Of a stretch of DNA of 64,000 nt, positions 1 through 64,000 are shown one piece after another (the first letter of the stretch is position 1; every line of letters begins with the position of its first letter). The notes beneath the pieces are model-generated. The model saw only the letters and a program-made list of their open reading frames with translations, searched no databases and was not told where the DNA came from. Source of the stretch: Bilabrum cf. latius (lineage: Eukaryota); NCBI GenBank assembly GCA_965178125.1, contig OZ237735.1:1302001-1366000 (forward strand). The letters run 5' to 3'. The position numbers were made by a program, and so were the translations under genes.

Positions 1-1
1 C

Positions 2-2566
2 CTAAGTCATCAAGGAGGCTTTATTGAACGGGTTCTATCGGACGTCCATGTTGCCCAGCCCCTGCTAGAGGCTGAGGCTTCCAATGAGACGTCTCAATCT
101 GGCCCCTCGTCAGGTGCAGAGGTGCCAGCAGTTGAGAAACCGCATCCGTTCGAAGTTGCAGTTGGACATCTTAGCCAAGCACTTGCAAATACTGGGTCCG
201 CGTTGCAGATGCTGGACGGCAGCCTGTCTTCAGTAGATCGCAAGCTACGAATCCAAAGTCGAAACCAGGCCCCGCCTCTTTTCGTTCCACTCCCATGCGT
301 ATCAGATGGCGCAAGCGATGTCACTTCTGTGTAGCTTGAGATGAGCTTGCGCTCTCGACAGAAGGCGCTGCAAGAAGCAGCTGTGGCCCTGGCACACACC
401 CACGCCGGAGCGGTTGCGTCCATAGCTCGTGGCCGCCGCCGACATGCGGCTGTAAGCGCTGCAATAAATGTAATCGCGAAAAGCTTCTGTCAATATGCTA
501 GCAATGCTGGCGATCAAGCGGCTCTCAGCTGCCTGTAGGTCCCGTCGGTTAGCCGCCCGTCGTCCGGTTCGATGGACCGAGCGGTCGAAGCCAGGGCAGC
601 GGCTCTCGGGCTGTGGCTGCTGCGGGCGGATGCACGTCTGCAAGCAGCTCTATGTGCGGCAAGTGTGAGCTAGTTTAGCTTGCTCGCGTTCGAAGGCACC
701 GAAAGCGGCGAGGAGAGGCCGAGGAAGAAGCACCGATAGGGCGAGCACGGAGCAGGTGCGCGCGATGCTACGTCCCCAGGCAGCGACAGCACGAGCCTTG
801 GTGATGTCGGCGCATCAAAGGAAGACAATGCCATGCAAGAGTGGGAAGAGCATCTGCAGTGGCCCCCTCCCATAGCATCGTTTGGCATAGGCGGCAGCAA
901 GAGCGCGGTGTCAGCGACACCATCCCGGGGGGGGGCAGTGGAACCGTCCCAGGTGGGTGCAAACACCGCGGTGGTGTGTGCTGGATTCCTGCAGGATTAG
1001 TCTGCATCGAGGTCAGGCACGCACCCGTAGCTGGTACACCCTGCTGCCTCCACTGTGTTCGTGTTGCCGGATGCAGATGCTAGCAGCGAAGGCCCTGGCC
1101 GTGGGGCGGGGGCGGGGGCGGAGGCGAAGGCGGAGGCGAAGGCTGCTGGTAGTGAAGCAGGCGCTGCCCTGAGAAGCAGCAGCAGCTCAAGTTCCAGCTC
1201 CGGCTCGGCTTCCGTTGCTGCCGCCGCTGATTCAGCGCAAGTCGTGGGGTTCGGACCACTGGGTTCTCTGGGCTGCTCGCAGGCGCCTCTCGTGTTTAGC
1301 GCCACAGTGCTCGTGCGGGATGATGCTGCTGCCTCCAACGGGTGGCTCACGGGAGGAGGGCCCGGGGTTCCAAGTCGTGCTGCGCTGCAGGAAGCCATGC
1401 GAGTGAGACGACCTGCGGGGTGGCGAGTGGCAGCACGGGCAGAGTGGCGCGCGGGCAATTGCTTCGGGACTGAAGCGCCCGGTACAACTGCAGCCTCTGT
1501 GTCTGCGCAGGCAGGCAACATCATGTGTTCCCTGAATGCGCTATGGGGCTGGGTCCGCGTGCTGGCCTATGTCTCAACTCTGGAAGCTGAGTAGAACAAG
1601 GACAGTCCAGGGGGCATCGAGTAGGGCCAGGCCGCGATGGATGGCGTTGATGGATCCGAGGGTGGTGCATCACTTCGAGCTGCCGCTGCACTGGTCCGTG
1701 TTTCTGGCTCGGCGCCTCTAGGGGTTGAGCACGCATTGGCTGTGCTTGGGAGCGCAGCCTCTGCGCCTGGCGAGACAGGACGCGGCACCGCCGCCCTCGA
1801 GCGAGCATTGCTAGTCGATGCATTGAGTGGATGCCTGGACGACGTAGCAGTGACACGGCTGCGGGCTGCCGCAGCTGCCGCGTCCAAGGTGGGCAAAGGG
1901 GCTAGCTCGACACCAGACGACCTGGGCATCAGGGCCATTGCGGCCGTGCGGCGACTGTGCGAATGGAGATTCTTGACCATCCCGGCAGTCACGGACGGGT
2001 CCGTGACAGTTGTAGTCGGTATGGAGCCATCGCTTGGCAAGGTAGACACAAGCAGAGCGACCCCGGCGGTCCTGCACTCGGTGGGTGGGGCTGCCTCCTC
2101 GCTCGCTTAGGCTGCTCTGGAGGCGTGCAGACAGGCTGCTGGTGGGGCGGCTCCTGTCAGTGGCGGACGGAAGGCTGTATTGAATCCAGCCTCTTTGTTC
2201 TCTGGTGTTCGAAAATCGGCCATTCGTGGCATGCTTGCCGCCGCACAGCGTGCTGCCGGACGACCCGATATCCCACCAGGAAACATCGCGGACTGCAAGC
2301 CCGGCAGCAGCATCGCGCTGCCTGGTAAGGAGGGACAGCAAGCAGCGCGAGTCGAGATCGCAGGGGCGACTAGCAGCAGCAGCAGTGGTGGTGGTGGCGG
2401 TGGTGACGGCGCGGCTGGAACAAGTACGGGAGGGATTCGGATGGACAGCGCGTGCATCCTTCATGGTGGGCCAGCCAGGCCGTGCACCCAGCGACACGGT
2501 GCCTCGAGGCGCGACGCACCAACCTCTAGGATCGAGTACGAAGAGCTTGTCGCGAGGCTGAAATGA
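2..2566 (+). CDS. Hypothetical Ala/Ser/Gly-rich protein, 5'-partial, with about 9 in-frame TAG (Gln) codons
   Basis: ORFs 122..334, 341..538, 1055..1594, 1637..2110 and 2180..2566 share one frame and are separated only by TAG. The frame is open from base 2 and ends ...EYEELVARLK-TGA (2564-2566). No family recognised. Confidence 0.7.
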
Positions 2567-2598
2567 CAGGTAGTAAAATTAAATCGTTAGCATTGCAT

Positions 2599-5294
2599 TC
2601 AGTACGCCGTGCCTTCTCCCCCAACAGCGAGCCCAGCTCTGCTACCACCCACAGCTGTCTGTGCCCTTGACCCCATCGAGCTACTGCCCATCCCCATCCT
2701 CGAGGGGCCGCTGCGGTAGCTGCTCCGTGTGCCTAGCCTGCCGCGCTGGGACGCACTCAGCAGGCGGCTCTCGCGAACTCTCTGCCTCGCCTCCTCGTTC
2801 ACCACAGTGATGTTGAACGACTTTCGCAGCCAGCCCGTGGAGGGGGCGTACTCGCCCGGCCCAGGCCCCTGGCCCTGGCCGTTTCGCTTGCTCGAGCTGG
2901 TGCCTCCCATGCTGGGGTCCGTGAAGCGCGAGCCCGTCCCACCGAGCTGAGACCTGGCCTAGGTGACTCGGCGGGCCCGCTCGAACCCGCTCTTGATCTC
3001 GTATTGGCCCACGCCAGGCTGCCTCACGCCACGCTGCCGCCCCCCTGAGCCCAGAGTGTCCATCGGCCCGCCCTGGAATCGATCCCGGGGCCCACTGCCG
3101 AGGAGACCGCCCCTGCTCGCACCGCCTGCACGCTGCTTGCCCGCATCCGCAGCCAGCCTGGGCACCCCGTACTCGCCCGGCCCAACAGCCGCACCGCCGC
3201 CGCCAGACAGCATCTGCCTCGCCACCAAGTCACCGAACCGATCCGTGCCCGAGCTAAAGGCCGCATTGGGCGCGCGCTGCCGAAACTCAGTCATCTCGGA
3301 CGGGTGCACGTGCGGGTCGTACTACCCAGGGCCCGGCTGACGGACCCTCCTCCTGGAAGGCCGCCCAGTGCCAGCTTTGGCTAGGCTAGACTTGCCAAGG
3401 TCACCAAGCATCGCGCTGGCACCCGCACCCAGCTGTGCCGGTGGCTGCGCCCTGCCGTCGTCCACCGCTCCATCATCATCCTCCTCGCGAGGCATGTCTG
3501 GGATCGCAGATTGCGGGCCAAACCTAGCGTCGGAGCAGCCGAAAGGGGGCGGCCTGACCACGCCCCTGGGGGCCGTCTTTCTCGCCATGTCGTCTGCCAT
3601 TGTCGGGAGGTTGTACGCAGTCGGATCGGGGCTGCCATGACGGCTGCCTGCCATCCCACCCCTAGCCTATCGAGACCCGAATGGGGCTGTGCGGCGCGGA
3701 AGCACCGCAGCAGTGGGTCCGCCTCCCCCCACGGCAGGGCGGTATGACCCAGTCAGAGCGCCCTTTTGTCCTGCATCGTCTGCATGCATGGCAGCCATCT
3801 CCGCTGCAATCACCGCTGCCTCCATAGACGGAGGCATCATCTTAAACCCACCCTATCCCGTTGGAGACCCCGTTCGTGCAGCGGCAGCCGCCCGTATCGG
3901 CGACGTGGGCAGGTCGTACGTGCCCGGGCCCGGCGTGTCAACCGAACTGGACAGCGGTGCTCGCCCGCTGCGACCGCCAAAACCGGGGCGACCGGCCCGC
4001 GGCGGCGCAAACATTGCAGAACCTCCTTGGTCTGGGCTTCCTCCTTGCATGGGAGAGCCCTTGGGGCCCTGGTAGGACACAGGACGCCCCGCCATGGCCA
4101 TGCCGTTGAACGCAGGCGAGTCGTTGTCGTAGTGCGCACCGGGGCCAGGCACGCACTGCATGTTCCTAGGCACCTCCAGGGCGCCGCCGCGCCTGGTTCC
4201 GCTGGCAAACACCGAGGTGGGTCTCTTGGGGGGGACGAACACCCTCCGTTTTTGCCTGGGCGCCACCGACCCATACTTTGCCAGGTGCGGGCCCTGCCCC
4301 ACCGGCACGGTGATGCCATGACCGGAGTCCCCTTGCGGGCCCCCTTGCCCCACGAGCTGCCTATCAAGGCCAGCAGTACTAAAGTCTGTCCGCTGTCCAG
4401 TGTCGGCACCGAAGGTAGCGCCCCCAGGACCCGTCCTCTGACCCCCGGCCAGCTTGCGGCTTCCTTGCCCCCTCTCCATGGCACGCATGGATCCCACGGG
4501 ATCGTATACGCCAGGGCCGGGGCCCGCCCCACCGTGGGGGTCGGCCCGGGGAGGCAGTTGCTACAGAGTTCCATCGGGCATTTCCTTGAAGCCCCTGTGG
4601 CCCCGGCCAGGCACGGAGGTGGCAGGGCCGTGCGCCCCGCCCCCGAGGTGCCGCTACTGTGGCGAACCGCCGGCTCGGCCGCGCGACACGCTCGCGGTGG
4701 TTCTGGGTCGTCGAGGATCACCCTATCGACGATAGGAAGGCTACACTTCCCTACCCTTGTCGCGGATCCGAATTGCTCCGGGGAGCTTGTAGCTTCCCGG
4801 GCCTGGTGTCACGTTGGCCGGATGCTGCTGCGACATGGCGCCGCCCATCCCGAACCTTGGGGCTTCGCTCATGAAGGCTGACTCTAAAGCTGCATTTGTC
4901 TTAATTTTAATGGGCTGGTGCGAGCGGCTCGGGCCCGGTGTCTCAGAAAAGCCCTCCTAGGCGCGCTTCGGCCTTGATGAGGAGCCGACGAATGGCGTGG
5001 GAGCCCCTAGCATGGGACGATTCGACGTGCCTCCAAATGGAGCAGAGCTAGGTTTGAATTGATATACAGTACCACCAGAGTGATACGCTCCTGCAATGCC
5101 AGGGAAGGAAACTAGAGCAGCGACAAAGCATGGGGATCCAATGCCGATATGCAACGGATTACTCTTCGAGCTAATCCGAAGACAAACCAGCCACATACTC
5201 GCCAACAGTACTAACCTGGACCTGGAGATTCATTTCCTGGCAACACGAGCCCAACCTTGTTCTGGTCACGCGAAGTTCTACCGGTGAAGGCCAT
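2599..5294 (-). CDS. SHIPPO/PG-rich repeat protein (STPG2/ODF3-like axonemal protein), ~856 aa, 2 exons (5294-5216, 5090-2599)
   Basis: Many PGPG(A/S/T/E)Y repeats with F-x-S-x-x-x-R spacers. ORFs 2599, 2959, 3322, 3853 and 4957 are in one frame joined by TAG. Exon 1 MAFTGRTSRD...SPGPG splices to AYHSG, restoring a PGPGAY repeat. Ends in TGA. Confidence 0.85.
5091..5215 (-). other. Spliceosomal intron (125 nt, GTTAGT...TTGCAG)
   Basis: Canonical ends; removal rebuilds the PGPG|AY repeat in frame. Confidence 0.85.
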
Positions 5295-5543
5295 CGTTTC
5301 CGTTCACCGAGCGACAACCCAAAATTTCTTGGCGTGTTTCCAAGCTACGAAAGCAGTCCCAGACAATCGGATATATAGAACCACAAAAGCTATACTTTTC
5401 GCTGTGTGAGCGACAGATGCAAATTCTATCGCCTGCAATAAGACCATTCCGGCAAAAAATGCGGCGCCGCGCACCACACCCCGATACGGTTCCGCAGTTG
5501 ATCCATCCATCAAATTGAATAGCCGCTTTCCTGATATGCACCC

Positions 5544-8500
5544 ATGAGCGGAAAGCACAGTCTCCCAGTCGTTCGTTTGGAAACACTTTCCAGCTCGGGC
5601 GCAAAATGCTTGTTATGGAGCACCTACGCTACCGTTGCTGGAGCGATCCTGCTCACTGCAATCTTGCAACTCGGTTTCGGGACTAGGAATTCAATGGCGC
5701 CGGTAGATAGGTGCAGTACTAGGGCTGACTGGGGATTTGGGCGAGTTTGCGGAGAAGACGGAATCCTTTCTGACCCATTGCCTGCTGTGAATGCCAGCGC
5801 AATGATTCTTGCATGGCACGGGATGGACCCGCGCGACGGCATTCCTGAGGCGTCGTTGTTCTTGAATACGCCTCCAGGCCTCAAAAATAGCCTGCTTGCG
5901 CCCCCAGAACTTGTTTATTCCGCGGCGATGTGGGGTAGCCTGTCGAGGATTGGCTCCACGGTTGAAGGCTCCGACTGGAACCTGATGTTTGCAGTTCGTA
6001 ACCTATCGGTAGCTCTGCCTTGCGATCCGGCTAAGATGGTTTGCAGTGAGCTTCCCATCCTTCCTGCTGCGCCCGGGGCATTGGATGGCATGGGGCAGCG
6101 GATCCCGGCAAGCAACTCGAGATACTCGAGCGGCCGCGGCGGATACTCGAGCTATCTATTGGCCGTGGCGGCAGGTGTTGGGCAGTTGCAGGCGCTGCCA
6201 ACTCCCAGCCCTACTCCAACACCTACACCATCAGTATCACCCACCCCATCTGGCTCACCTAGCCCCAATGCAACGCACGGGGCCGCCATCAGCGGCACAC
6301 CCACACCCACACCCACTGCCGCTGCCCCAGTCGACAGTGGCCAGGACTACCAGGTGGGCGCATCGCCCGCACCCCCTGCCGGTGGCACCCGGTCGTTCAT
6401 GTCTCTCCTGGACTTTGCCCTGGGACCAAAGGGCACAAGTGGTCCTGAACAGTTTTTGCCTGAAGACACCCCCGGGATTCCCATTGCGCGTCTCGGAACC
6501 GAACGACAAAGACCCCCGGCGGCAGATCCCAGCCCAACGCCCAGCCCAACGCCCCAGCCAAGCCCGACGCCCTCGCCATTGCCGCAGCTCCGGCCTCAGG
6601 TCCGCATAAGGCAGAACCGAGCATTTTTCAGGCTCATCGATGCGTACGGCAGGCTTGTTCTCTCAGGGATCACGCTCCTTGCCATGGTCTTCTGGACCAT
6701 CAGCGTCTGCACAGCGGTGGATCCGAGCAGCTTGCGCGGGAGAAACGGATCAAGGAACTCAAAGCGAAAGTCATCAACCAAGGCGGATGGGAAGGAAGAT
6801 GAGGGGGGTGACGAGACCAGCAATCAGCTGCTGATCGAGGAGAGCGAGGTGGAGGTCTTCGGCGGCTGCAACCAGCGCGACTGGCCCATGCAGCGGAGAT
6901 GGGTCCTGTACCTTCAGCTCGCGCTCATCATGTGGCAGAACCCCCTGCTTGCGGCGGTTGAGCTGTCATCGGGTGAAGCCAACAGGAGCGGGAAAGCATC
7001 CGGCCTAGCGGTTGCTAGCCAGCTGATGGCCTCTGCTGGACTCGTTGGCCTGCTCGTGCTTTGGCTTGCGCTCGCTGACAGCCTCCGCTTCTTCGAACGA
7101 AGGTTGAGGTGCTGCGGATTCTATGTGCCAAAGATAGCCTTTGCGGTGTGCATGCTGTCAGCCACGGCTATGGTGAATCTGCTGCAGGCCCCTGGTATCC
7201 TAGCGCCAGCCTCCGCTGCCTCGTCGCTCCCGCCCGCTGGCAGCTTGCCCGGCCCTAGTAACTGGAAGCAAAATATAACAGCTGGTGTACTGAACGGGAT
7301 CGAGCCGATCGGCTCCCAAGACGGTGTGAGCTCAACCCACCTTGAGGTTGTGGGGGACTCGTGGCATGCAGCAGTGCTGCGGACCCTGCTGCATCCTCTG
7401 ACCACGGGAAACGCTGCGAGCGCGCCATCAGCGAGCGGGGACACGTACCTCGGCGGTGGTGATAGCGGCAGCCCCGGCGCGCTGAACAGCAAAGTTGTCA
7501 TTCGCCTCGCACTTGGGTTTGGGTCCGTGTACGCGATATGCTTGTTGGGGTGGGTTGTGTGGCTAGGGATTGCGCTGGTGCTCACCAATCGCGTCTTGGA
7601 GAAGAAACCATATGCGGAGACCCGTGCCAGGCAGCTGCTGTTCCGCTTCTATTCGTACATCATGGTGGTAGTTGTTCTATTTTTGGCCGCTGTGAACTGC
7701 GTGAAGCTTGGCTAGTTCTTGATCGAAGCAACCAGCAGGGCCATTCAGTCGAAGGACGCATCGTCTGCCGCGCCAGGTCAGGGCGAAACTGCAGCAAACC
7801 AGGCGCTGCAGCTCATCAGCATGCTTGCGTCCGGTTACTCTGGGATGGGAGAGGCACTGCTGGTCAGCGTGTTCTGCTACATCCTGGCGTTCGTGTGGCT
7901 TCCGCCGTACTCCGAAGACATTGGCGACCTGCTGGCATTGGCACAAGGCGCCGGCAGGGGGGTTTCGACTGGGCTAGGCAAGAGGAGCACGGCGCGGTCC
8001 CGTGGGCTCTCCGGGATGTCATCGGGTGCGGAGGACGAGGAAGAGCAGGGAGGAGCTGTTCACACGACGTTTGGGTCCACGGCGCTGGGCGTGTTTGGCA
8101 TGCTGGGAGCTCGAACTGGACTCATGTCTGACATTGACGCAGGCCCGTGCTTCTCGCTGGTTGTATGCAGCTGGCTCTTTGACATGGCATGGGCGGCTTA
8201 CTACGACCCCGTGCCCGCCAAGGAGCAGGTAAGGGTAGCGATCGAGGCTGCTCATCGACGCTTCGAGAAGGAATTAGACGAGAAGCGGAAGCAAGACGGC
8301 ACGCAGGACCAGCCCCGGCCTCCCAACCCGTACGAGTTCAATCCTGCTACAAAGAGAGGACCCTGGACGCAGTCCGCCTTCGGTGTCCTCCCTGAGATTC
8401 CCCACGGCTTTCAGCTCGATCGCTTCGTGTTCGGAGCGTGGACAGACACGGTGGCACTCGTTATGCGGAGAGGCACTCGAGTGGTGGTTGCCTTCAGGGG

Positions 8501-11036
8501 CACTGCGAGCCGAAGGAACGTCACCACGGACCTGAATGTGTCGCAGGAGCCTGCGCGATTGGGACACGCGCACAACGCTGCCGGGGGCCCGAGCGGCGGT
8601 GAGACAAGCAGCGGGCCGCGCGACTCGGACACAGCATCCGCGGGACGGCCGGCTGGAAGTGCCCCGCATCGAACAAGCTCAGGACGCGGCGATGGCACCG
8701 GTGGCCATTCCGATGCATAGGGTGTGGCCTCTCGCGCGATGGAAGGAGTAGAGGCTGCCACTGCCGACCTGCCGATCTTCCGGCAGATCCTGCCGCTGGC
8801 TCACTCGGGGTTCCTAGAAGCGTACAACGAGATCAGACACGAGCTTCAAGACGCAGTGCAGTCTGCACTGCTGGAGGCGGGTCCCAAGGCAAGGCTCTAC
8901 CTAACTGGGCACAGCCTCGGTGGTGCTCTCGCCACGCTCGCCGCCCTGGATCTCCACCTGAGCGTGGCGCAGGCTCGCGCCGCTCTCGCGGCCACGAGGG
9001 GCTTTGGAACTAGGGCCACCCGCGGGGGCATCTGGGGCAGACCGTCTCAGTCGGGTGCAGGCACCGGCAGTCTTCAGGCTCCGCTGCTTCGCGACGCGCC
9101 ATCGCCATCGAGCCACTCAGAGAAGACGTTCACCAGCCACAACCGAGGGGCGTCGACATTTGCAGTGGTGCAGAGTGACGGAGCCGGACTCTCGCCGGGA
9201 CAGGTGCACCAGCGCTCCGCCTCACAACCGCTCGAGCGCGACGCAACCCACGAAGCCTACTTGCAGGCGCTCGACGAGCTCGGTATTATAAGAGAGGAAA
9301 GCGACAGCATGGATGCACTGCTGACTGGCCATCCTGCCGGTGGTAGCAGCAGCTACGGATAGCTGGTCAGGCCGCGGATCGGCACTGATTCGTCCTCAGG
9401 TGATGATGACAGGAGATCCGACAGCGGCTCTGGGCGGCACGCCGCCGATATGGGCGCATCAAGCGCGGGGCATCTGAGCCCAATCGTAGACGAGGGTGTG
9501 CAAGAGGCCGCAGCAAAGCATGCGGCTTCTGGAGCTATCTCAAGCGACGCTGTACCTGTTGGCCGGACTGCCGACCCAGAGCAGAAGCCAGGACCAGCAG
9601 CGGACGAGTTGCTGCTTCGGCTGCACACTGGCACGGCAGCTCTGGGTAACTCGCAGTGGATGTTCATGCGGCGCGAGGCAGAGCAAGAGCAGCAAGCTCA
9701 GGCGTCAACGGGAAGCCAAGACGCGCCCGGCGATTCGAGCAGCGCCTCAATCGCAGCAAGCGGTGGTCAAGCATCGAAGCCGCGGAGCAGAGGACGGCGT
9801 GAAGTGGCTCGCGGTCGGGTTGTGGACCCCTTCAGGGCCTCTGGCCTCCTGCCGCCCATCCCCCCCACCGAGTTTCCTGAGGCCCTGAAAGCCCTCCGAG
9901 ATCGGCTGCGCGGTGCTGGATCGCTGCATCGTGGTAGCACAGTTAGCAGAGATGACCTGGTGGCCACAGCAGCCGGCGGCGAGGCTCACAGAGCGGCTAG
10001 TGGGAGGGCAAGCGGTAGGCGAGCTGGGAGTGCATCTTACGGCACCATGGATATGCTTGGGTTTACGGGGAGCAGTGGAAGTGGCAGCGGGGATAGTCCT
10101 GATGCTGGCAAAGGCACTGGTACTGCTGCGGGTGGAGCGGGTGCCTCGGCCACGCCATTGGTTGAATTGACGCCCTAGACGCAGTCTGCCAGCCGACTGC
10201 TTGCTCGTGCGCGCCAGCTCGCCGAGCTGCCTGAGGCTCTGATCCCTCTCGTGGTAGAGGAGGAGATCGAGTCATCTTCGCTGAGCTTGGTTGGTCGGTG
10301 TCCGGAGCGTGTTGAAAATCCCATGGTGGCGCTTACGCAGGGCTTCCGAAACGACGGTGGCGCTGGGCCTGGACCTGGTGGCAGGGCTTGGGACCGCGAG
10401 CAGGACGATGCTGATTCTGATGCTAAACCATAGCAATAGACAGGCTCGACTAGTCGAGGCCAAGTATGGGCAGACAATGCTAGGCGGTACGGCAACCAAT
10501 CGAGGTACGCCCCGGGGTCTGTATCTGGCGAGAGTCACGAAGACGACATCTGGTCCAGGAGCGGGGCGCTCACAAGCACGCAGGCGCTGCTGCTGCCAAC
10601 CGACCTGCAGCTGTACACCTTTGGGACGCCGAGGGTCGGGAACCACGCGTTTGCGATCCGTCTCAACGCGGTCGTCCCTCTTCATTTCCGGGTTGTGGTG
10701 GACGGGGACGCGATCGCAAGCGTGCCCAAGTTCTGCTGGCTGTACAAGCACGCTGGCATCAAGGTGGACCTCGACCGGCAGGGGAATTGCGTGGTGGACC
10801 CAAGCTTCCTCGAGTGGCAGCTGCGTGCTAGCACAGCCTCCTCTATCTCCTCCCACATGATGAGTTCCTATCGCCGTGCACTGCTTCGAGCCAGAGCTCT
10901 GGAAGGTCTGAGGCCGCCGCCGGATCTGGTGCTCACAAGGAGAGTGATTGGAGAGTGGATCCAGAAGCACATGGCGTCCGAAGACGGCGGTCCAGATGGT
11001 GTAGCTGTGCCAGTCCAGGAGTCAGATGCCTTGTAA
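5544..11036 (+). CDS. TMEM181/Wntless-like multipass membrane domain fused to a class-3 (alpha/beta hydrolase) lipase, ~1830 aa
   Basis: ORFs 5544, 7719, 8724, 9450, 10251 and 10695 are in one frame joined by TAG. Lipase_3 motifs: VVAFRGT, AHSGF, LTGHSLGGALA (Ser at 8913), YTFGTPRVGN (10614), RVVVDGD..VP, YKHAG, SHMMSSY. N-terminal hydrophobic segments (QNRAF, DW..QRRW...WQNP, FYVPK, PY) recall TMEM181. Ends in TAA. Confidence 0.85.
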
Positions 11037-11149: not shown

Positions 11150-14100
11150 ATGCTCGGACTACAACAGTCTAATGATGGTAGTGGGATTGATATTGGAATA
11201 GCTGTCTGCTATGCCGCTGCGTTTGCGTCGATCATCCCGCATGTCTGGGGACTATTTGGCGAGGATGGTGTGCTGCCGTATTCAAGATACTTTGGCCAAG
11301 AGTCGACCCATCAAGCCCCATCTGTCGAACTAATTCAAAGGATTCCTTCATTCTTGTGGTTTGCTGGCGATTTGGGCTTGCCGTATGAGGTTATGGCGCA
11401 CGCATTTGCTGTGTTAGGTTTCACACTGTCAGTTGCTGCTGCATTGCAACCATCTTCCTTGCTACTCTTATCGATATGGTTGCTCCACTTAGGCCTTGTA
11501 GTATCTGGACAGACATTTCTATCATTCCAGTGGGATTCGCTTCTGTAGGAAGCCGGTTTCGTTGCCATTTTGCACGCACCTGTTTTGCCGGAGTGGACCT
11601 GGGCCCTTGTTTCGGGCCGTAAACACGCCTTGTCCCGCCCACCACCGGCACGCTGGGCGTTCAGGTTCCTGTTATTTAAGTTGATGCTGCTGAGCGGGTA
11701 TGTCAAGCTGTAGTCTCGGTGTGATACGTGGATGAACCTTACAGCTACAGAGTACCACTTCGCGACGTAGCCACTCCCGACCGCAGCAGCCTGGTTACTG
11801 CACCAGACGCCCCCGGTACTTCACAAAGTTGCGGTAGCGGTCACGATGTGGGCTGAAGGTCCGGGCGCATTCCTGCTGATTGTGCCTCACCACGGGATTG
11901 CCAGGTTCGCAGCATACATGCAGCTGCTTCTGCAAATGATGATTTCGATCAGCGGAAGCTACACATACTTTAATTTGCTAACCATGGTACTTTGTACTGC
12001 TGTGCTGTAGACGAGCGTAGTACCGGGCATTCCTGGCGAGATTGGTGCCTCGGCGAGCGAGCAGCAGGGTGCTGCAGTTCCCAATCACATAGACCAGCGA
12101 AAAGGCAGTGACAGTGGCACAGCGGTTCGCGGCCGTGCCAGCGGTGGCAGCAAACACAGCTCCACTTTGAGGTCGGCCAATCCTGCCGGAGAGGATGTGG
12201 ACAATCAGGCTGAAGAGGACGAAGGCAATGTGGCAAGGCACATTGCTCGTGGCTGCAGGGGTCTCGCAGACACCGCATACAGCGAAGGCTTCTTGCTGGC
12301 AGCCAGGAAACTGTGGGCCTGGTTCGAGGGTAGCATCACCGGAAGTGTCCTGACTGCGCTGGGCATGGTCTGGTTTGTGCAAGCATCGTGCGCATAGATG
12401 TTCAGCCTGTACAGTGTCGTGCCCCCTGGCTCTGAAGGCGGCGAGTCCACCAGTTCTGATCTGCACAGGGCTCAGCTGGTTCCAGTGCACGGTCTGGGTG
12501 GCTTTATTGCAAATTTCATGGATGAAGCAACCCCTCTCTGGCGAAAATTCGATCTGAAGATGCGAATGGGAGTAGAGGAAGCAGACGAGTGGATCCAGCT
12601 GCTGGTGCCGGTCGCTCTGTGGGGCTTCGCTATAGTATGGACGGGGGCGTGCCTTCTGTTCCTTGCAGACCAAGCCAGCTGCAGCATTCTAGGGTGCATG
12701 AGCTGTTGTTACGTGGCCGACAATTGCCAATGCTGTGCTGGAACATCTGGGGGTTGGGCTAGGCCCGATGGGCGATCTCCGGGGAGCGAAAACACGACCG
12801 TAGAGTTGCCGGTTGATACTGCCAAACTGCAGGGAGATCCGAGTGATTCTGGTGTTGATAATACCTCGGAAGCCTAGGCCACGGCGCAGCTCCGTCGGCG
12901 CGGTCCTGCTCGGGCACAAACTGGTGCTGCATCAGATACGCCCGCTGGTGGCCCAGCCTGGGAGCAGCCACAAGACAATGGATCGTCAGATACAGATGCT
13001 ACCCGCGAAATCGGGAACCTACCCTAGGTAGAGCAGCGGCATGTTTGCAGTGCCACTGCTAGTTTAGCGCTGTATGGCGTGGGTGCTTCTATCTGGAGAT
13101 TGGTGGCGTCGCTTCTGATGCTGTCGCACGCTGTCTTCATCTGCTGCTGCCTTGCCCTGTGGCTCTGCTGCTCTGCTTGGCCGCTGCTGCACTCTCTTGG
13201 GCTCGCACAGCAGCAGCTACAGAATGGCGCACCGCCATTCGTGCACAGTGTAGCATCCAAACTTGGCAACTGGCGCGTCGCAAGCTACTACGGTCTGTTT
13301 CGGTCCATGACGGGGGTTGGCCAGTCGGCCGTGGACGACTGGGGGTTGCCGGTTTCGGTCCCCGCTCGCCCCGAGCTCATTGTTGAAGGCTCGCGATTGC
13401 CTGCTGGGGTTACAGAGGGTAGCATATCTGCTGATGATCTCCACTGGGAGGAGCTGCCCTTCAGGCACAAGCCTGGGGACCTGGCAGGCGAGCCAACGTC
13501 AGTCGTGCCGTTCTAGCCTAGGTTCGATTGGCAGATGTGGTTTGCAGCCCTTGGCTAGCACTAGCACGCTCCATGGCTGTTGTCTGCCGTGGATAAGGTA
13601 CTGGATGGCAGTCCGGACGTGATCGAGCTGTTCGATGCCGATAAGTGGCCTTTCGTCCCTGAGTCCGGCGGCAACGCCAGCAGCGCAAGTGCTGGTCGCC
13701 CAGCGCGGGACGAGGACATCGTCACGCTGTATGGAGGAAAGGAGGTGCTGCGTCCAGACGCCATCAGGATTCAAAAGTACTTGTATGATTTCACCAGGCT
13801 AGACACCCCTTGGGCCAGACGATTGCCTATTGAACGGAGAGCCGAGGCAGTGCTGCCTTGGGGATCCTTCGCGGCCGGAAACAGGAGCGTAGGCACAAAA
13901 GGGGCAATACAAAGGCACTTGCTTCTTCTCGCCGGCCACTTGCTTGGCTCTGAAGCTGCCAGCACCGCCCTGAGTGCAGATGGACCGGCCAAAGAGGGCT
14001 ACGAGCAAGACCAGTCGTTGCAAGGAGGTCACGCAGGACCACGCCCCCAGGCCGGGACGGACCTGCCCTGGTACTACAGAGAGCGGGAGGGGGGAGACTG

Positions 14101-53800: not shown

Positions 53801-56800
53801 TGGATTCCGTGATGGCATCCCTGACGACATGCGCAGGTACCTCACTCTCTCGCGACTTGGAGGTCCGGATGGTGCCCGCCTCATGCGGGGCATCGCGCTG
53901 GCTCAGCCGGCTGGCTTCCCCTTTGATGCCGCTGACTATGATGACTCCCAGGAAGCCGCTGATGCCGCGATGGCCGCTGCCATGCTGAGGCTGCGCGAGT
54001 GGGTCGCTGGCTTGGAGCGCGTGCGCGTGAGCGACGAGCGGATCCTGCAGCACCGCGGACTGCACCAGGTTGAGTTCGAACTGCCCGAGGGCTTCGGCAC
54101 GGACCGCGAGGTGTTCCTTAGCATCGGCACGAACGAGGCTCTGTCCAACGTGGGTCTGTTTGACTTCCTGAGGCCAGCAATCGACAACATCGCCCCCGAT
54201 CGCATCCTGACCGACTTCGGCATCGACCCTGAGAGCCTCGAGGCGCAGACATCGCTGCGTGTGATCATCGAGGGTGAAAACTTCTGCAACGGCAAGGATG
54301 GCTGCGGTTCCGTGCGGATTGATGGGCTGCCCGTCGACACGTGGAGCTGGAACCACAACGAGATCGTGCTGCTGTACCGCAAGGACCCAGCAGAGTCGGC
54401 CACCAAGGAGCACACGGTGCAGGTGATCGTGGGCGGGCAGGTATCGGAGGAGGCCACCTTTGCCGAGCCCATCCCTTCCTTCGATGGCAGAAACCAGCCC
54501 AACGACTACGAGAACGTGCCTACGGATGCCGTTGATCCTGCCACCGGCAACCGTATCGTGTTCGAGATCTTCGGCGTTGCAGACCTGAACCGCGTGCCCC
54601 TGGACCAGCTCAATGTCACCATTGGCGGGCGCCAGTGCGAGCAGGTCGCAGTGAACCCGTGCCAGGAGCCGACGGACGGCCGCACGTGCTCCAGTGGATC
54701 GTGCTGCCCTGACAATACCCAGGCCACCACGTACTCGACCCTCAGCTGCCTCATGCCTCAGGGAACAGGGGCCGGAAACATCGTGCTGATCGCAGTAACC
54801 GGAGCTACCAGCCGAGAAGACAGCGGGCTCACTGTGTCCTACGGCAAGCCGCAGGTGGCTCGCGTGATCACTCTGGAGGACTACCCCGGCCTGCCCGCCG
54901 GCAGCGACCTCCTTGCCCCCGACCGCTTCTTCGACTCGGAGGCGCACCAGCAGGCGTGGCTCGACTTCGAGGCGGATGGCTCCACGGGCACACCACCAGC
55001 TTTGCCCAGGCCCCGCCGTGGCATGCCCACGTTTGGCTGCCGCGTGCGCATCGAGGGCATCAACTTTGGCACACCAGCGCTTGCTACCCCGCTGGTGGCA
55101 CTGCCCGAGGTGGAAGTGGTCCACAATGCCAGCATGGGTCACTTGCACACTCACACTGCTATTGAGGCTATGATTGGCGCCGGATCTGGCGTCGTCCGTG
55201 CCCTTACTGTCGCAGTCACCGACCAATTCTCGAACGCCCGGCGCGGCCTGAGGTACGGACAGCCGATCGTGACTGCCGTGCAACCCGAGCTGTACGTCGC
55301 AACCGACCCCGCAGGTCCGGCTCCGACCTCCGGTGACGCTCTCGTGCGCATTTCCGGTCGCAACTTTGGCCCTGCCGGCCCCGCCGATCCTACCCTGTAG
55401 GTGCAGGTGGGTGGCAGGTCGTGCGTGGTTGACGCGGTCCGTGACCCGTGGGCAGCAAACTCCCAGCATTCTTCGATGCTTTGCCGTACCCCTGCAGGGC
55501 AGGGCAGGGACCTGCCGGTGCACGTCGAGCTGGCAGGATAGTCCAGCGACATCTCCGATGAGGCACCCGCCGGCGCGCTGGTTGACTCGTCTATGCAGTC
55601 GGATGAATCCTCTCCCATCGTGAGGTACGCCTACAACCGACCCGTGGTGCGCTCCCTGATGCCAAGGTCGGCACCAACTGGCGGCCGCCGCATTGAGTTG
55701 CCCTCCGTGAATGAGACCAGAGACAACCCGTACGCCATGTGGGAGATGTACTCGTGGCTGATCGACTCGGAGGAGGTGCGTCTGGAGGATCCTGGGTCGT
55801 TCAGCAGCGACGACGATGCCATCATCGCAACGGTAGAGGGCATGGACTTCGGTCTTCAGGGCAACGCGTGGGTGGAGTTCTACGTGCCGCCGTAGTAGGG
55901 AAGTGCCTCGCGCAGACTGCAGCAGTTCGCCGATTTCACTCGTGCGCCCACTGGGCCATCCCCCGGCTTCCCGCTGTCTGCTGATTCGCTGCTGGTGGCA
56001 CCCGCCGACATGCTGGTGCACAACCACACCCACATGCGCTTCCCTATCCCTCGGGGAAGTTTCACTCAGAGCGACATGGTCATCGTGGTCTGGGTCGGCG
56101 GGCAGTCATCCGCCAACTCGCCCGAGGAGGCCGACCCGAGGGTCAGCATGGTCTTCGACCCGCCTCGCGTACACGGGGTCAAGAACTTCGAGCGAGATCC
56201 GGAGGACTGCGAGGACGTGGATCGCTGCTTTAACACGTATGATGCTGCCACTGGGACGTACACGAGGCACTGCCGCAAGGCGCCCGCCGAGTGCTACGAC
56301 ACGATCGGACAGTTCTACCTAGAGCTGGTCGGCGAGTCGTTCGGTACCGACGGTGACGTGAACGTGCGTGTCGGCGAGTGGGACTGCCCGCTCGCCGCCG
56401 ACAACGAGATCCCTGGCCGTCTGGGCTCACACTCCCACTTCCGCCTGGTGTGCCGCGCCCCAGCTGGCTACGGTGACAACCTCCCTGTGACCGTTACTGT
56501 AAACGGCAGGTCCTCTTTGGATGACCGCGTCGAGTACGTGCCCGACAGGACTGAAGATACGGGCTCTCGCATGGTGGTGGTCGAGGAGGCACCGGAGCCT
56601 CCTATCTTCGCCTATGATCCCCCTATCGTCATGGCTGTGCAGAGCTCTGAGCCCAACGCTGACGGAGACGACGTGCGAATCCGTGGGAAGAACTTTGGCG
56701 GGGAGCCTACGCTTGTAGAGATCACCATCGGTGGCCTCGAGTGCCTGGAGCCCCAGTGGCTGAACGACGGGCTGCTGCAGTGTGATGCTCAGCGCGACAA

Positions 56801-59426
56801 GGTGGGTCTCAAGAACATGACTATTCTGGCCGCTAACCGCACCGAACCGTACGTCATCTTTGACTACGAAGAGCTGATCACGTTCCAGTGTGGAAAGGAC
56901 TTCTATGGTCTCGTAGGCGAGTACTGCGTGAACTGCGAGGAGGAGCGCATCGGTGCTGTGTGCCCCGGCGGCGAGACCTACGAGGACCTGGTCACGAGCG
57001 ACGAGGGATTCTGGAGGCTGGACTTCAACATCACCAGCGGCGAGTCGATCGACACTCGGTACTGCCACCAGAGCAGGAACGAGTTCCACGAGCTGTCGGT
57101 GCTCAGGGAGCAGCAGTGCATGTACACGGCACCGTGCGAGCCTACGTGGGCCTGTGTCGGGAACAACACCTGCGCCGAGGGATACACCGCAGAGAGGTGC
57201 TCGCAGTGCGTCAAGGGCACGCATTATCGGATCGGTGGTGAGTGCAGGAAGTGCCCTGACAGGCCATGGCTTATCTTCGTGGGGATGGGAATCGCTGCCA
57301 TGATGGCAGGGACCGCTGGTTACATCCTCAACAGGAAGGGTATCAAGAACGTGCTGATCATGATCTGCGCCGACACCTTCCAGGTGCTGGCCCTGTTCTC
57401 CAACGCACGCATCCGCTGGCCCCCGGTCCTGGAGCGCTTCTTCCAGCTCCTGTCCGCCTTCAACCTGAACGTGGAACTCGCTGCCCCGGAGTGTATCCAG
57501 CCCGATGTGACCTACGAGCAGAAGTTTGCAGCCACTGTGCTTTTGCCCGTCGTGGTGGTAATTCTGTTCTTCTCAGTGTATCTGGGACGCCTGCTGTACA
57601 AGATGTGCTGCATGAGCAAGGGCAAGGAGCACCTGCACGCCCATGCGCCGCAGCTGATCAGCTCGCTCATCATCCTGTCGCGCGTGTGCTACCTGTTCGT
57701 TACCCAGGCTGCTCTCAGCACCGTGAGCTGCCTGTAGACGACTCCTCCGGACCCACAGGGAGTGACGTACATGGATGGTCTACTTGACTACCCGTGCTGG
57801 CAGCCAGGCTCCAAGCAGCTGGTCCTGTTCCCGTTCGGCATGGCAGCATTCCTGGGATACAGCATCGTGCTGCCTCTGGCCATGTTCTGGTTCGTCCGCT
57901 CCAACAAGAATTCGATCAAGCACGACCAGATCCTGCGTGCGGCAGGCACCGGCAACGACAACAAGAGCAAGCTGTACCACTTCCGCAAGACGTGGCACCA
58001 GCTCTACTACCCATTCAAGCCCGGGAGCAGCGCTTGGATGATCATGGTCATCACCCGCAAGTTCGCCATCGCCACCATTGCTCTGGTGTTCCGTGTCTCC
58101 CCGACGTACCAGATGAGTGTGCTGATGCTTGCCCTGTTCGCTGCCTTCGTGCTGCAGATCCGCCACGAGCCCTTCATGTCTCGCGGTGACTAGGGCCGCG
58201 TGATCGCCGAGCATCGTGTCAAGGTGCTGACCAGCATCGAGCACGCCCGGATCGAGTCCGAGATCCAGGCTATGCTGGAGAAGAACTACAAGAGGACGCA
58301 AAAGGTCGACGTGCTGCTCGACTCGCGCCGCTCCTCCAACCATGTCGGCGAGCAGATCGTCAAGTACCTGCTGGACTACAACCAGGTTGAGTCCTTCCTA
58401 CTTGGCTGCGGCATTCTCGTGTGCCTTGCTGCCGTCATGCTGGCCTCGAGCCGATTTGATGACGACCAGATCGACTACTACCGCAACGAGTACGACGCCA
58501 TCACGTGGGCAACTGTGCTCATCCTCGTGGTTATCGTACTGTACGCGCTGATCGTGCTGGCCCTGGACATCTACTTCGGCGTCGCGCCCGAGCATGCAGC
58601 CGCCACGTTACAGTCGTGTGGTTGCTGCAAGTCTATTGCCGAACGCGCGAACGCTCACGACGTTGCCAAGCGTGGCAAGGGCGGCAAGAAGGGCGCCGAG
58701 ATGCTGCACGACGACGGCGAGGAGGACCTGCAGATGGCCAGCAACCCGCTGATGATGCAGGCCATGAACAACGCCAGCTCGTCATCCACCGGTGTGGAGA
58801 CCGGCATCTCGATCGAGAGGCTGCTCGCCATGGAGAACCCACCCCCCAAGGAATCGTGGGCAGGCGTTCGCCTTTGGATGCGCAGCCTGCACGGATCCGT
58901 GGAGCAGCTCAAGGAGCGGCTGCACGAGCAGCAGATCGAGGCTGCGAAGGGCACCGCTGCTTCGGACGGTGCCGCCGCCGTGGCCTCTGGTGGACGCCGC
59001 CGGAAGGGCGGTGCGATCACCAAGGCTGCCGCAGCATCGGGCGGCAGCAAGCGTCGCCGGTTCGGGCAGCAGGCTCCGCGCAGTGGCAACCTGAGTATGG
59101 GAACTGGCTCCGGGAAGAAGCAGCGTTCCATGCGCTCCCTACTGAGCACTGGTCGCAAGGGTGCTCGCCTGGCGGGAGTGTCTTCGCCTTCGTCCACCCG
59201 GAGCGAGGAGGAGCAGAAGGATGAGTCCATGATGATGAACCCTCTGCAGCAGCCGGTGACCGGCGATTCCACACCACTCGCTTCCGCTGAAGCAGAGAGC
59301 AAGCGCCAGGAGGATGTGGCCAGCGCCGGGGCCGCCTCTCCTTCTGCCGCCGCGTCATCTGCTGCTGACGCTCTCGAGGAGGGCGTCAACCCGATGGCTA
59401 GGCGCATCGCCGGAAAGTCGGAGTGA
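41869..59426 (+). CDS. Giant cell-surface receptor, ~5650 aa: signal peptide - CUB - Cys-rich (GCC2/GCC3-like) repeats - ~21 cadherin repeats - IPT/TIG repeats - Cys-rich - ~9 TM helices - cytoplasmic tail. Exons 41869-41987, 42071-42106, 42196-42218, 42339-42585, 42677-42711, 42931-59426
   Basis: Thirteen ORF fragments from 42915 to 58200 share one frame, separated only by TAG (15 TAG in total). Cadherin Ca-binding motifs DxNExP, AxDxD, LD(H/Y/F)E. IPT motifs (GxNFG, VxVGGQxS). CPAGxYC repeats. CUB-like NY...CYW / FEL...C.NDY...RYCG. Signal MGLRAISLIFALIGAYLLPQASG. Ends in TGA. Confidence 0.9.
41988..42930 (+). other. Cluster of five GT-AG introns (41988-42070, 42107-42195, 42219-42338, 42586-42676, 42712-42930) with 36-, 23- and 35-nt microexons
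   Basis: All have GT(G/A)AG donors and GCAG acceptors. Phases chain consistently and yield a coherent CUB domain after a signal peptide. Confidence 0.75.
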
Positions 59427-60393: not shown

Positions 60394-63291
60394 TCAATTT
60401 AGCGCCAGCGGCACTCCTACGGCGTGCTTAGATGCAGACACCAGTACGCCATCTATATCTTCGTCTGACGATAGCGGGATCTCTAGCTCCGCACTGGACA
60501 GACCAGGTGAGCTTGCTGTCACGGTCACCGAAGTCGAAGCGGCCGGCAGCCCTCTTACGTCCCCGTTCACAGATGCGACCCGAACACCCCCTCCGAGCTC
60601 GGCAGAGCCTCCATTGATCTCAACAAGTCGCGTTCGGTGTGCCGCTGAGGTGGCAGATACCTCTGTCGATCGTAAAATGGCGCGCACCAGGCCATGGAAA
60701 GCAGAGCGGGACGAGCTCTTGGGCTACTCTAGCGAGGCTGGGTCCCCGTTGTCCACGCCGTACACCACCGCAGGTCCCGACTTGATTGCGAACGTGACAA
60801 CGTTAGATGCACCCCAGACCTGCACCCCGTTCGAGTCTACCACGGTGGCGCGCACCATGGCTGCATCCTTGCCGTCGCTCACCAGCTTACCGGTGCCAGT
60901 ACCAGTGCGTGGAACGGGTGCATCCAGCTGCAGCTCGATACGGTCTGGCTTGCCCGGCGTGATACGAGTATGTGTATCCACAGCGCTACCGCTGGCGTCC
61001 AGCCCTACGGCAGTCAGGTTGCCTGCCTCGAACGTGATCGGTCCGAAGGTCAGCTCCCCGGAGAACATGTCGCGACCAGCGGGCTTGCTGCCCACCTGCT
61101 TCCCATTCAGCAGCAGCTGCACCTAATCCACACCCTGCGCAATGACCTTTACGCTTCGAGTAGCATGCGTGCTGTTCTCTGGCCACTGGTCCGCGATGTG
61201 TACGGATGCCGTTTCGTACTGAAGAGGAGGCACACCGTGATCGACAGAGCCGTTCCGGTTTTGCAGCCACCATTGCCTGTAGAAGTACGCGTTGGACTTT
61301 GCAAATCCACTGAGATCGAACTGTCCGTAAGAACTGCTCGTCCGGGGAAACGTGTGGCCCTCGCCGTAGTAGCCGAACAGGGTCCAGGTGTAGCTGCCGG
61401 AAGTGAAGTCAAGACCGAGTGAGCTGTTCGTCTGGGATGCTGCACAGCCCGAGCTCTCGTCGCTGTAATGGTTTTTGTCCGGCCACATCTCATCCCTATC
61501 TTGCTGACAGGAGCAGCACTCGGAAGCGATGGTGGGCTTGTGGGTGAAGTTTTTGTGGAAGTCGATGAACGAAGAGGCGCCCTTGTGAGAGAAACCTTGC
61601 ACGTCGATGTCCTTCGTCTCCTCATCACCAAAGTTGCCGATCATGTTGGCAGTGGTCGTAACATGGGGCGCGTACTGCTGCATAAGCTGCTTCATCTGGT
61701 CCGCGATCGCCGGGTCAGAGCTGCATCCGTTTTCGTTGCAGAAACTCATTAGAACCACGCTCGCTCTAGCACGATCCCGCCTCAGCAAGTCGCGGAATGC
61801 GTTGTAATACTCATCACCGTCCCTGTAGTTGCGGTGCTCATCCATAACCATGATTCCTAAACGGTCTGCTACATCCAGAAGCACAGGCACGGGAGCGTTG
61901 TGTGACATGCGCCGCGCATTTCCGCCCACTGCGCGCAGCATCTGCATGCGATACAGATTGATTCTGGCAGGCACAGCCATGCCAACCCCGCCGAAGTTGT
62001 CGTGGTCACAGAACCCCCGGTGCTTGAAGCCCTATCCGTTCAATGAAAAGCCCTTAGCGGCGTCGAAGTGCACAGCCCGGATACCGAACGGCTGGTCCAC
62101 CTGGTCCACTGACTCGCCTGACGGCCCGCCGCGGAGTACCGTAGTTCGCAGTGTGTACAAGTAGGGGTCTTGGACGGACCACAGCCGCACCTGTGACACA
62201 CTCATGTTCCCAGCCACAGTGAGAACCTCGCCAGGACTCACAGACACAGCGGGATTGACTGCGAGCCCAACCGCAGAGCCCGACCCGGACGTGTCCAGCA
62301 GCTCCACCTTGAGCACGGCCTCCTGAGGCTGCGAGTAACCGGGCACGCTAGAGTTGGAGTCTAGCGTGACATCAATGGCAAATCCCACCGATGCGTCCGA
62401 TGCCCGAAGCACGGATCGCCCAGGTGTAGACCTCTCCTGGTCCAGACGAACACGCGACACATCCACCTCCGACCACGCATCCACGCCGTCAAAGTCCACG
62501 TGCAGCGGGGCCACAGCTACGAGGTTCACATCTGTGAATAGACCACCGCCCGTGTACCACCAGCTAGAAGTCTTGGTGGCATCAATGAACAGGGCCAGCA
62601 CGTTTTCATCCTCAGGGTCAGTGCCGTACTGCACACTGCTGTCGTTGTCCAGCCGGATTTGGAATGGGGTGTAGCCCTACAAGTGGTGGGCAGACTGATT
62701 TCCGTTCAAGAATGCGGTCGTGTCGTGAAACGCTCCCTCAAATCGCACGAATACGCTCTTGGTGCCTGCCAATGATCGTGGCAAAAAGAAGTGTTTTCTG
62801 TACCAAGACACATTTCGTGGGAGGAATGCATTCCCCTCAGAGTTGCTGGCGCTAAAGTTGGCGTTCTCGATCATGAAATCGTGGGGCGCGCTGACAGTGG
62901 ACCAAGCCCCGTCATTGAATCCCTTGCTGCCTGGCCAGTTCAGGTTGGGCTTGCCGGAGCTGTTCCTGCCCTGTCCGACCCACGGCGACTTGCTGTCGTA
63001 GCACTTGCTGGGCTGGCCGATCCAACAGCCACCGCCCTTGTACTTAATTGGATCGAGGTACTGCCAGACGAGACAGTCAGGGGCTGCGCAGCACGACTGC
63101 CTGCACTATTCGGCAGTGCTGGCTGCCGGCACGTCCCCTAGCCCGACGCACTACACGCCTGACCTATCAACTGGGAAGGCATCTGCAGGGCAAGAAGCGT
63201 TCATGTAGATGCCAGTGTACTGCTTCAGTCCAAAGTTGAACGCAATTATTTCGCGTGAAGCAGCGACCGTTGCAGTTGCAGTTGCGAGCAT
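60394..63291 (-). CDS. Glycoside hydrolase family 2 (beta-galactosidase-like), probably secreted, ~965 aa; start uncertain (63291, 63360, or a split ATG at 63401)
   Basis: ORFs 60394, 60724, 61123, 62032, 62677 and 63151 are in one frame joined by TAG. Motifs PHDF, WYRKHF, FEGA, GYTPF, WWYTGGGLF, LWSVQDPYLY, FGIR..FD..KGFSLNG, GGNARRMSHN, DRLGIMVMDE, CNE (acid/base), ASEC (nucleophile), GVDNGDP. Ends in TGA. Confidence 0.93.
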
Positions 63292-63700
63292 CAGCCCGAT
63301 CTTGGCGAGCCTGCGAATGAGGGCAAATTTGGATGTTGTTCTACCGCATGCTATCAACATAACATAACTATAAGTAACAGTTTAGCAAGAGAAGCTTACA
63401 TGATCCCCTGAATTGGTTTTGCGCTGTCGGAATATGACGCGCAGCCCTTCTGTGATATACATAATACGGCACGCTACTAACACTCTAGACGCGCTCCTCG
63501 CCATGGCGGCCGCCAACGTCAAGACATGGTTGAACCAGAATGGGCAGTATGACGGGGTGCCGGCAGGGGGCGCCGGATGGAACGCGAACGCTGACGCTCT
63601 CCAGGGGGAAGTGGGTCCCTCTTTCGAACAAAATATCACATCCCCCATGCACTCCAGCCGCAAGCAAATCCAGTGGATAATCCTCAAGCTGTGGATCTTA

Positions 63701-64000
63701 TCAGTCAGCCCACACGAGCTCGTCGCTATCCCCGTGGCCATCTCCGGCATCTACCGACGACAGGTCGGGGGGATCGCTCACTCCCACTCGGAACGGCTTG
63801 AATCCGAACGTGCGATGACGAACCAAGGACTGCGACAAATCTCCGGCAGTTCCAGTTCCGTCAATTGGCGGGGTACCGCTCCTCTGATTGCGCTGTTGCG
63901 TGATTTGGTTGTGCATCCCGCGCACGCGGCGGATTGCTGCAGCTACCGAGTCAGCGCCGACAGTTATGCCATTCCGATTCCGAGTCGATGCGACCCCGGA
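63701..64000 (-). CDS. 3' end of a hypothetical protein running off the window
   Basis: Frame open from 64000 to TGA at 63703-63701, immediately followed by TAA. No family recognised. Confidence 0.5.
   Translation of the reverse strand, partial: SGVASTRNRNGITVGADSVAAAIRRVRGMHNQITQQRNQRSGTPPIDGTGTAGDLSQSLVRHRTFGFKPFRVGVSDPPDLSSVDAGDGHGDSDELVWAD

Follow-up and report, generated by a model that had tools for sequence, protein, structure and literature searches.

UAG very probably read as glutamine, with UGA and UAA kept as stops, in a G+C-rich stretch of nuclear DNA from a unicellular eukaryote

The stretch of DNA described here, 64,000 nucleotides from contig OZ237735.1 of assembly GCA_965178125.1 (positions 1,302,001 to 1,366,000 of the forward strand; in the following called the window, with positions 1..64000), is of interest for the genetic code in which its protein genes are written. 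The window is nuclear and gene-dense, with a G+C content of about 60%, and its reading frames are interrupted by TAG alone. A previous sequence-only reading had proposed that TAG stands for glutamine (Gln, Q) in this DNA, with TAA and TGA remaining as stops. A code of this pattern, UAG as sense codon next to two conventional terminators, corresponds to the formerly listed NCBI table 15.

Twelve long genes, g1 to g12, are arranged on both strands of the window. The gene g3 (5535..11036, plus strand) encodes a WLS-like transmembrane domain and a class-3 lipase, with six in-frame TAGs. The lipase domain is placed behind the Wntless-like transmembrane domain, and g3 lies directly 5' of g4 (11150..14815, plus), which codes for a lipase maturation factor (LMF) with LMF1 and LMF1_C domains and has 14 in-frame TAGs. 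It is followed by g5 (14971..17058, plus), the gene of CDC40/PRP17, with an intron at 15239-15334 and TAGs at 15217, 15373, 15388, 15586 and 15616. An RRM-domain protein with nine TAGs is encoded by g7 (19414..21888, minus), and an M17 leucyl aminopeptidase by g8 (22150..23779, plus), which has an intron at 22251-22354, the highest G+C content at third codon positions (GC3, 0.85) and not a single TAG; each of the other genes carries between 3 and 34. The upper value belongs to g9 (23919..35240, minus), whose product of 3773 amino acids (aa) combines FYVE, PH_BEACH and BEACH domains. The genes g8 and g9 are convergent and nearly touch, with the end of the M17 gene at 23779 and the TGA of the BEACH gene at 23919-23921 on the other strand. 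Further downstream are the RPAP1-like g10 (36091..41175, plus; 13 TAGs, the one at 37435 within the RPAP1_C match), the cadherin and IPT/TIG transmembrane protein g11 (42801..59426, plus; a frame of 5541 codons with 15 TAGs), and g12 (60394..63381, minus; six TAGs), with PAN and glycoside hydrolase family 2 (GH2) domains. Three genes belong to no Pfam family: g1 (2..2566, plus; nine TAGs), an Ala/Ser-rich protein whose 5' end lies outside the window; g2 (2599..5229, minus; 876 aa, nine TAGs), for which Pfam gave no family at E 0.001 or better, and whose many P-G-P-G-x-Y repeats we take to resemble sperm-tail PG-rich repeats; and g6 (17639..19233, plus), with an intron at 17767-17860 and three TAGs, all 3' of the intron. 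Between CDC40 and g6 a small gene was located on the minus strand (17070..17460), with an intron at 17254-17352. All of these genes end with TGA, except for g3, which ends with TAA.

Using the standard stops, the longest open reading frame (ORF) in the window has 1252 aa. When TAG is read as sense, the top ORFs grow to 5541, 3773, 1833, 1694 and 1462 aa, while TAA alone as sense has almost no effect (top ORF still 1252 aa). With TGA alone as sense, random frames are stretched, this being G+C-rich DNA, and no giant ORFs result (top ORFs 1252 and 1190 aa). The combination of TAG and TAA as sense codons leads to no major fusion; two ORFs change from 1833 to 1835 and from 1462 to 1464 aa, and the top ORFs stay the same. 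Matches to Pfam families run across TAGs, including Beach (385 bits), Cadherin (495 bits), LMF1, WD40/PRP17, Peptidase_M17, GH2, RPAP1_C and Lipase_3. With these domains spanning the TAGs, the genes are considered real, and they are of ordinary eukaryotic kinds. In the 12 long gene ORFs (19,113 codons, delimited by TAA or TGA, terminal stops removed), TAG occurs on the coding strand 122, 147 and 139 times in frames 0, 1 and 2, compared with 0, 45 and 62 for TAA (107 off-frame) and 0, 327 and 363 for TGA (690 off-frame). With a looser selection of genes, 123 TAG were counted in 19,206 codons, and an additional in-frame TAG, at 15217 in exon 1 of CDC40, comes on top of the 122 counted. With in-frame TAG close to its off-frame counts, and TAA and TGA at zero, it follows that there is no in-frame avoidance of TAG whatsoever; in conserved protein genes that are expressed, UAG is a frequent in-frame codon. 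The earlier statements that the DNA is G+C-rich, that its genes are broken by in-frame TAG only, at about a hundred sites, and that TAA and TGA stay stops are thus borne out, with neither of the latter two found within the 19,113 codons.

TGA closes 12 of the 13 genes whose ends were examined, and TAA the remaining one (g3, 11034-11036). The sequence-only reading had listed 14 ends, 13 TGA and one TAA; it was right about the TAA at 11034, and a partial minus-strand ORF that ends with TGA at 63701 may have been its fourteenth. That TGA has a stop function and no sense meaning is documented by its in-frame absence versus 690 off-frame occurrences and by the 12 gene ends. If TAA to TAG followed CAA to CAG (164:522), about 38 in-frame TAA would be expected; with none observed (P about 3e-15), TAA is not a sense codon in these 64 kb. 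In-frame TAA as common as TAG, which would have pointed to the ordinary NCBI table 6, had been named as a possible objection to the earlier proposal; TAA is never in frame here, hence the code is not table 6.

The residue inserted at TAG was assessed from columns of aligned homologues. The queries carried X at every TAG, which keeps the columns free of query bias; the BEACH columns were built from the best 120 of 1761 matches, the LMF columns from the best 150 of 4773, with five fragments of near relatives set aside. At TAG 27450-27452 in the BEACH domain (g9, minus strand), the homologues have Q in 119/119 cases, at TAG 11768 in LMF1 in 136/145, and at TAG 13514 in LMF1_C in 130/140. At TAG 11711 and TAG 13562 of LMF, Q was found in 83/145 and 61/136 homologues, and four other well-populated BEACH TAG columns are variable. 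The four N-terminal TAG columns of CDC40, with 4-9 aligned homologues only, are uninformative; TAG 15373 has Q 2, E 1 and N 1 among 4 aligned homologues, and Q in all 3 PDB Prp17 alignments listed, within non-significant stretches. Sites 27450-27452, 11768, 13514 and 15373 had been named in the sequence-only reading as family-conserved glutamines. All four coordinates are right, and the first three are indeed Gln columns, but for 15373 the four homologues lend Gln little support.

The three regions used as queries hold 24 TAG codons; column log-odds were summed for the 12 of them that have at least 30 aligned homologue residues, and all 20 residues were scored. The sum is positive for Q (+12.6); the next residue is S (-9.7), with E at -10.3, L at -23.1 and Y at -35.4. 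As a control, the same script recovered the standard residue for 49/49 ordinary codons with at least 8 columns. Q holds the plurality in 5/12 TAG columns, versus 16/30 for CAG and 2/11 for CAA. A lack of Gln enrichment in TAG columns, named beforehand as an outcome that would speak against the earlier proposal, was not seen. Judged by their homologues, the UAG positions match Gln, the exceptions being one Leu column and one Phe/Tyr column.

A second, curated line of evidence is offered by Pfam scores, for which the LMF, BEACH, GH2 and RPAP1 segments were translated in turn with Q, K, E, S, X, Y, L or W in place of TAG. The summed bit scores are Q 1012.3, K 1004.7, E 1001.4, S 993.4, X 983.5, Y 975.9, L 970.9 and W 958.8, which puts Q ahead of K by 7.6 bits and of L by 41 bits. 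RPAP1_C alone, with the previously named TAG 37435 at its correct coordinate, scores 42.0 bits with Q and 37.9 bits with K, the next best; no PDB relative of RPAP1 was found. In its usage, TAG accounts for 15% of the Gln codons, and CAA for 24% of the CAR codons (164 vs 522). Across the 12 genes the TAG share of Gln codons goes along with the CAA share (Spearman 0.84, p 6e-4) and decreases as GC3 increases (-0.76); the M17 gene g8, the most codon-biased of all, has none. As to the base that follows, TAG (C 37, G 44, T 21, A 20) is similar to CAG. These figures suggest that TAG serves as a synonymous Gln codon of minor use, which arises when CAG undergoes a C-to-T change and which is removed from genes with strong codon bias.

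Contigs of the sequencing runs X5 and X6, from two studies, were treated as transcript assemblies, because they join GT..AG introns and one of them runs into A22. Both sets join four introns, at 15239-15334, 17767-17860 and 22251-22354 (GT..AG) and at 17254-17352 (CT..AC, on the minus strand); intron length is about 95-105 nt. Four of the clean introns claimed earlier are thereby bridged. The poly(A) run of 22 A follows an X5 contig at 23900, 121 nt after the TGA of the M17 gene. The listed X5 and X6 pieces break between genes, with the exception of one X5 piece that extends over the convergent pair of g6 and g7 (17639-21865). Of the 50 in-frame TAGs between 10400 and 30399, 47 are contained in X5 pieces, without any other letter at these sites; the remaining ones (14777, 14789, 24347) are located outside the listed pieces and have no bearing either way. 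The X6 contigs show no differences from the window. Since spliced contigs of two studies keep TAG, it is neither edited to CAG nor removed by splicing, the two possibilities on which the sequence-only reading had asked for transcript evidence.

Close relatives of the window are represented by 11 ORF fragments (5 LMF, 6 BEACH) with 81-96% aa identity. They read Q at 3/3 of the window TAG sites that they span, and TAG exchanges with CAG and CAA between the window and close relatives. Seven of the 11 fragments end exactly at a window TAG, two at a window CAG and one at a window TAC, with one undecided; database protein fragments of relatives thus start and stop at TAGs. Along these lines, the PRP17 fragment of a relative (471 aa, 98% identical) begins just 3' of the last CDC40 TAG of the window. 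The locus is also present in the DNA data sets X8 and X10, whose contigs are for the most part 90-95% alike to the window (about 8% diverged), and two runs that hold window relatives are labelled as algae and protist metagenomes. From about 1,630 X8/X10 differences 40 were listed; 26 of these fall within g3 (10445-10937), and all frame-checked ones among them affect the third codon position, which is the pattern of purifying selection. A more distant relative is the metagenome contig L001 (1-3814), with the gene order RRM-M17-BEACH of the window and the M17 intron at the same place. Its M17 gene has 77% DNA identity over 1394 aligned bases (23% diverged) and its M17 protein 86% over 474 aligned residues (87% in the best tblastn segment); the genes flanking M17 reach only 33-51% protein identity to the window. 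In-frame TAG is present in 3/3 syntenic genes of L001, in M17 at the position of a window CAA. A second metagenome locus, L002, was too distant (49%) and was not used, and a search of assembled genome contigs with M17 found no relative. As the code is shared with relatives about 8% diverged in DNA and with L001, the trait belongs to a clade and not to one assembly; this clade would comprise three sequence lineages or more.

Taken together, this is very probably nuclear DNA of a unicellular eukaryote in which UAG is Gln, and in which UGA, as the main terminator, and UAA are kept as stops; column log-odds, Pfam sums and the 3/3 sites in relatives agree with the earlier proposal to this effect. 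Going by the described cases of such codes, a cognate tRNA-Gln with the anticodon CUA probably reads UAG, and eRF1 probably no longer recognises UAG while still recognising UAA and UGA. Several points weigh against this assignment, or limit it. The evidence base is 64 kb only. Within it ARAGORN located no tRNA gene and Rfam gave no match, and eRF1 is not among the window genes, so that the mechanism is one we infer. 'TAA = stop' depends on in-frame absence and on a single gene end, itself trailed by an in-frame TGA one codon later (11040-11042), which leaves in-frame absence as the main argument for TAA as terminator. X5 and X6 are not on record as RNA, and as contigs drop rare variants, low-level editing would be missed. 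The Pfam test covered seven residues and X only, and GH2 taken alone does not discriminate among Q, K and E (233.8, 235.3 and 235.1 bits). In 4/4 PDB alignments listed, F or Y stands opposite the TAG at aa 235 of GH2, and TAG 11546 in LMF1 is found on a conserved Leu column (L 118/140), which is either a true Leu-to-Gln change in the lineage or a hint of non-uniform decoding. This TAG (11546-11548, plus strand) sits in the LMF1 motif QWDxLL-L-E. Finally, as the ORFs were delimited by TAA and TGA, a TAG used as terminator in some contexts would go unseen, and g4 has two TAGs (14777, 14789) within the last 13 codons before its TGA. The two may form a Gln tail, or they may be a sign that TAG acts as terminator. 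The LMF ORF fragment of a relative also stops at the first of the two TAGs in this terminal region (window 14777-14815).

Some of these points have a bearing on other explanations. That UAG also ends some genes in a context-dependent manner, while being Gln within genes, would agree with the way the ORFs were delimited and with the LMF tail, and codes of this kind have been reported from Condylostoma, karyorelicts and Blastocrithidia, where other stop codons are concerned. However, no window gene needs TAG as its end, TGA supplying 12 of 13, and in 10/11 genes that contain TAG, 29 codons or more separate the last TAG from the terminal stop, with conserved domains 3' of this TAG; together with the CAG-like base following TAG, this renders such an ambiguous code unlikely. 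Even less probable is a code in which both TAA and TAG are Gln (UAR=Gln, NCBI table 6) and TAA is rare owing to G+C richness. The G+C content of about 60% and the TGA behind the sole TAA gene end, which deprives it of its force as proof of TAA termination, would be in line with it, and UAR=Gln is ascribed to several non-ciliates (PMC5304391, PMC11687900); on the other hand, none of the roughly 38 TAA expected beside 122 TAG was seen, TAA is common off-frame (45, 62), and readthrough of TAA fuses no major ORF.

A comparably small probability is given to TAG as sense codon for Lys, Glu, Leu, Ser or Tyr. The Leu column at 11546, the GH2 TAG aligned to F/Y and the GH2 sums, which favour K and E by 1.3-1.5 bits, could be quoted for it, but the three near-invariant Gln columns, log-odds of -9.7 or less for every residue other than Q, the Pfam totals and the relatives, which have Q at 3/3 TAG sites and a stop at two window CAG codons, argue for Gln. 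A single transition separates each in-frame TAG from CAG, and it might be suspected that the code is unchanged, with pseudogenes, a C-to-T sequencing or conversion artefact, or U-to-C RNA editing restoring CAG as the cause. C-to-T damage would, however, also have converted CAA and CGA into in-frame TAA and TGA, of which there are none, TAG alone being affected, and relatives from other studies have retained these TAGs. The differences in g3, which are at third positions in all frame-checked cases (40 of about 1,630 differences were listed), are at odds with pseudogenes, and the spliced contigs of two studies, identical to DNA at 47/50 TAGs, with editing. The chance that no code change is involved is minute.

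A code in which UAG is Gln while UAA and UGA stay stops is of a known type, documented in Iotanema, Protocruzia and phyllopharyngeans; the variant is rare and known from few unrelated lineages. UAA and UAG are nearly always reassigned jointly (PMC5304391, PMC11687900). The fornicate Iotanema spirale, described by Panek et al. in 2017 (PMC5304391), uses the same table as the window, with UAG alone as Gln and UAA and UGA as terminators; its genes end mostly with UAA, in contrast to the window with 12/13 TGA ends and about 60% G+C. McGowan et al. reported in 2024 UAG, but not UAA, as Gln in two phyllopharyngean ciliate lineages and in Protocruzia tuzeti, with independent origins (PMC11687900). 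UAG is also uncoupled from UAA in the nuclear genomes of the rhizarian exLh (UAG=Leu) and of Scotinosphaera (UAG=Ser) (PMC5304391, PMC11687900), the residues being different from the window, where Leu and Ser score -23.1 and -9.7 versus +12.6 for Gln. The aphelid Amoeboaphelidium protococcarum, cited with UAR=Gln (PMC5304391, PMC11687900), is likewise a eukaryote outside the ciliates with a UAR codon for Gln, and it is associated with algae; relatives of the window come in part from algae and protist metagenome runs. Its code is cited as comprising UAA and UAG, whereas TAA is never in frame in the window. Codon and residue are furthermore shared with crAss-like phages (code 15, TAG=Gln; PMC9523058), which are phage genomes in bacterial hosts, in contrast to the eukaryotic genes of the window with their spliceosomal introns and a poly(A) run.

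In ciliates, macronuclear genomes are rich in A+T, and their chromosomes are short and of gene size, or compact. The window differs from them by its richness in G+C, by genes of up to 16.6 kb and by introns of about 95-105 nt. For the placement of the organism PRP17 was used, with 12 of its 17 organism-named matches being, as we take their labels, stramenopiles. The PRP17 tree has 28 rows, made up of the named matches and of the unnamed P0122-P0135 of at least 480 aa, with Kluyveromyces dropped; it contains no fornicate or ciliate rows and is thus no direct test against Iotanema. On a long branch (1.39), the window falls into a group of otherwise unnamed sequences (86/96), apart from a cluster of ochrophytes and oomycetes (98/96*) and from a cluster of animals, fungi and green lineage (100/99*). 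To force it into the opisthokonts costs 36.5 log-likelihood units (p-AU 0.0017, approximately unbiased test), a p value that is optimistic because the opisthokont group was chosen after a quick tree. A single gene with so long a branch is not enough for a placement of the organism. The position of PRP17 outside opisthokonts leads away from the aphelid Amoeboaphelidium, and an origin from this organism was rejected (AU p 0.0017); no NCBI-sourced near-identical protein was found among the matches, although A. protococcarum proteins are in GenBank (PMC10057920).

The lineage seems new. In the full-text literature no report of its code was found, subscription papers and supplements being outside the search, such that a prior description is possible. 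An independent, possibly undescribed origin of UAG=Gln, as the sequence-only reading had suggested, is plausible. A more specific proposal is put forward tentatively, as one that may well turn out otherwise: an independent, unpublished origin of UAG-only=Gln in a G+C-rich protist clade that is neither ciliate nor fornicate, maybe a deep heterotrophic stramenopile, with the code shared at about 23% DNA divergence, TGA as near-sole terminator, and UAG as a low-usage Gln codon selected out of highly biased genes. Should the stramenopile assignment be true, this would be, to our knowledge, the first nuclear stop-codon reassignment in stramenopiles.

Lineages which split UAG from UAA test ideas about the discrimination by eRF1 and about whether UAG alone may be captured by a tRNA(CUA) (PMC5304391, PMC11687900). 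The present one is a tractable case, with G+C-rich genes that have hardly any introns, a presence in a number of public data sets of DNA and RNA, and relatives that are about 8% and about 23% diverged; from data sets and graded relatives it would be possible to date how TAG spread through the proteome. On the practical side, gene callers operating with the standard code cut these genes at every TAG, and as long as code 15 is not applied, proteomes, BUSCO scores and phylogenomic matrices of the clade will be in error.

Two of the genes have features of their own. The frame of g11, 5541 codons without an intron, comprises 16 or more matches to cadherin together with IPT/TIG domains, and its C-terminus passes the membrane several times; it is an adhesion-type protein of unusual size for a protist. 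The small gene at 17070-17460 (minus strand) has a product of about 60 aa, hydrophobic in a segment at the C-terminus; its X5 contig has a depth of 81.6 and a loose end of 13 letters at 17448, on the 5' side of the gene.

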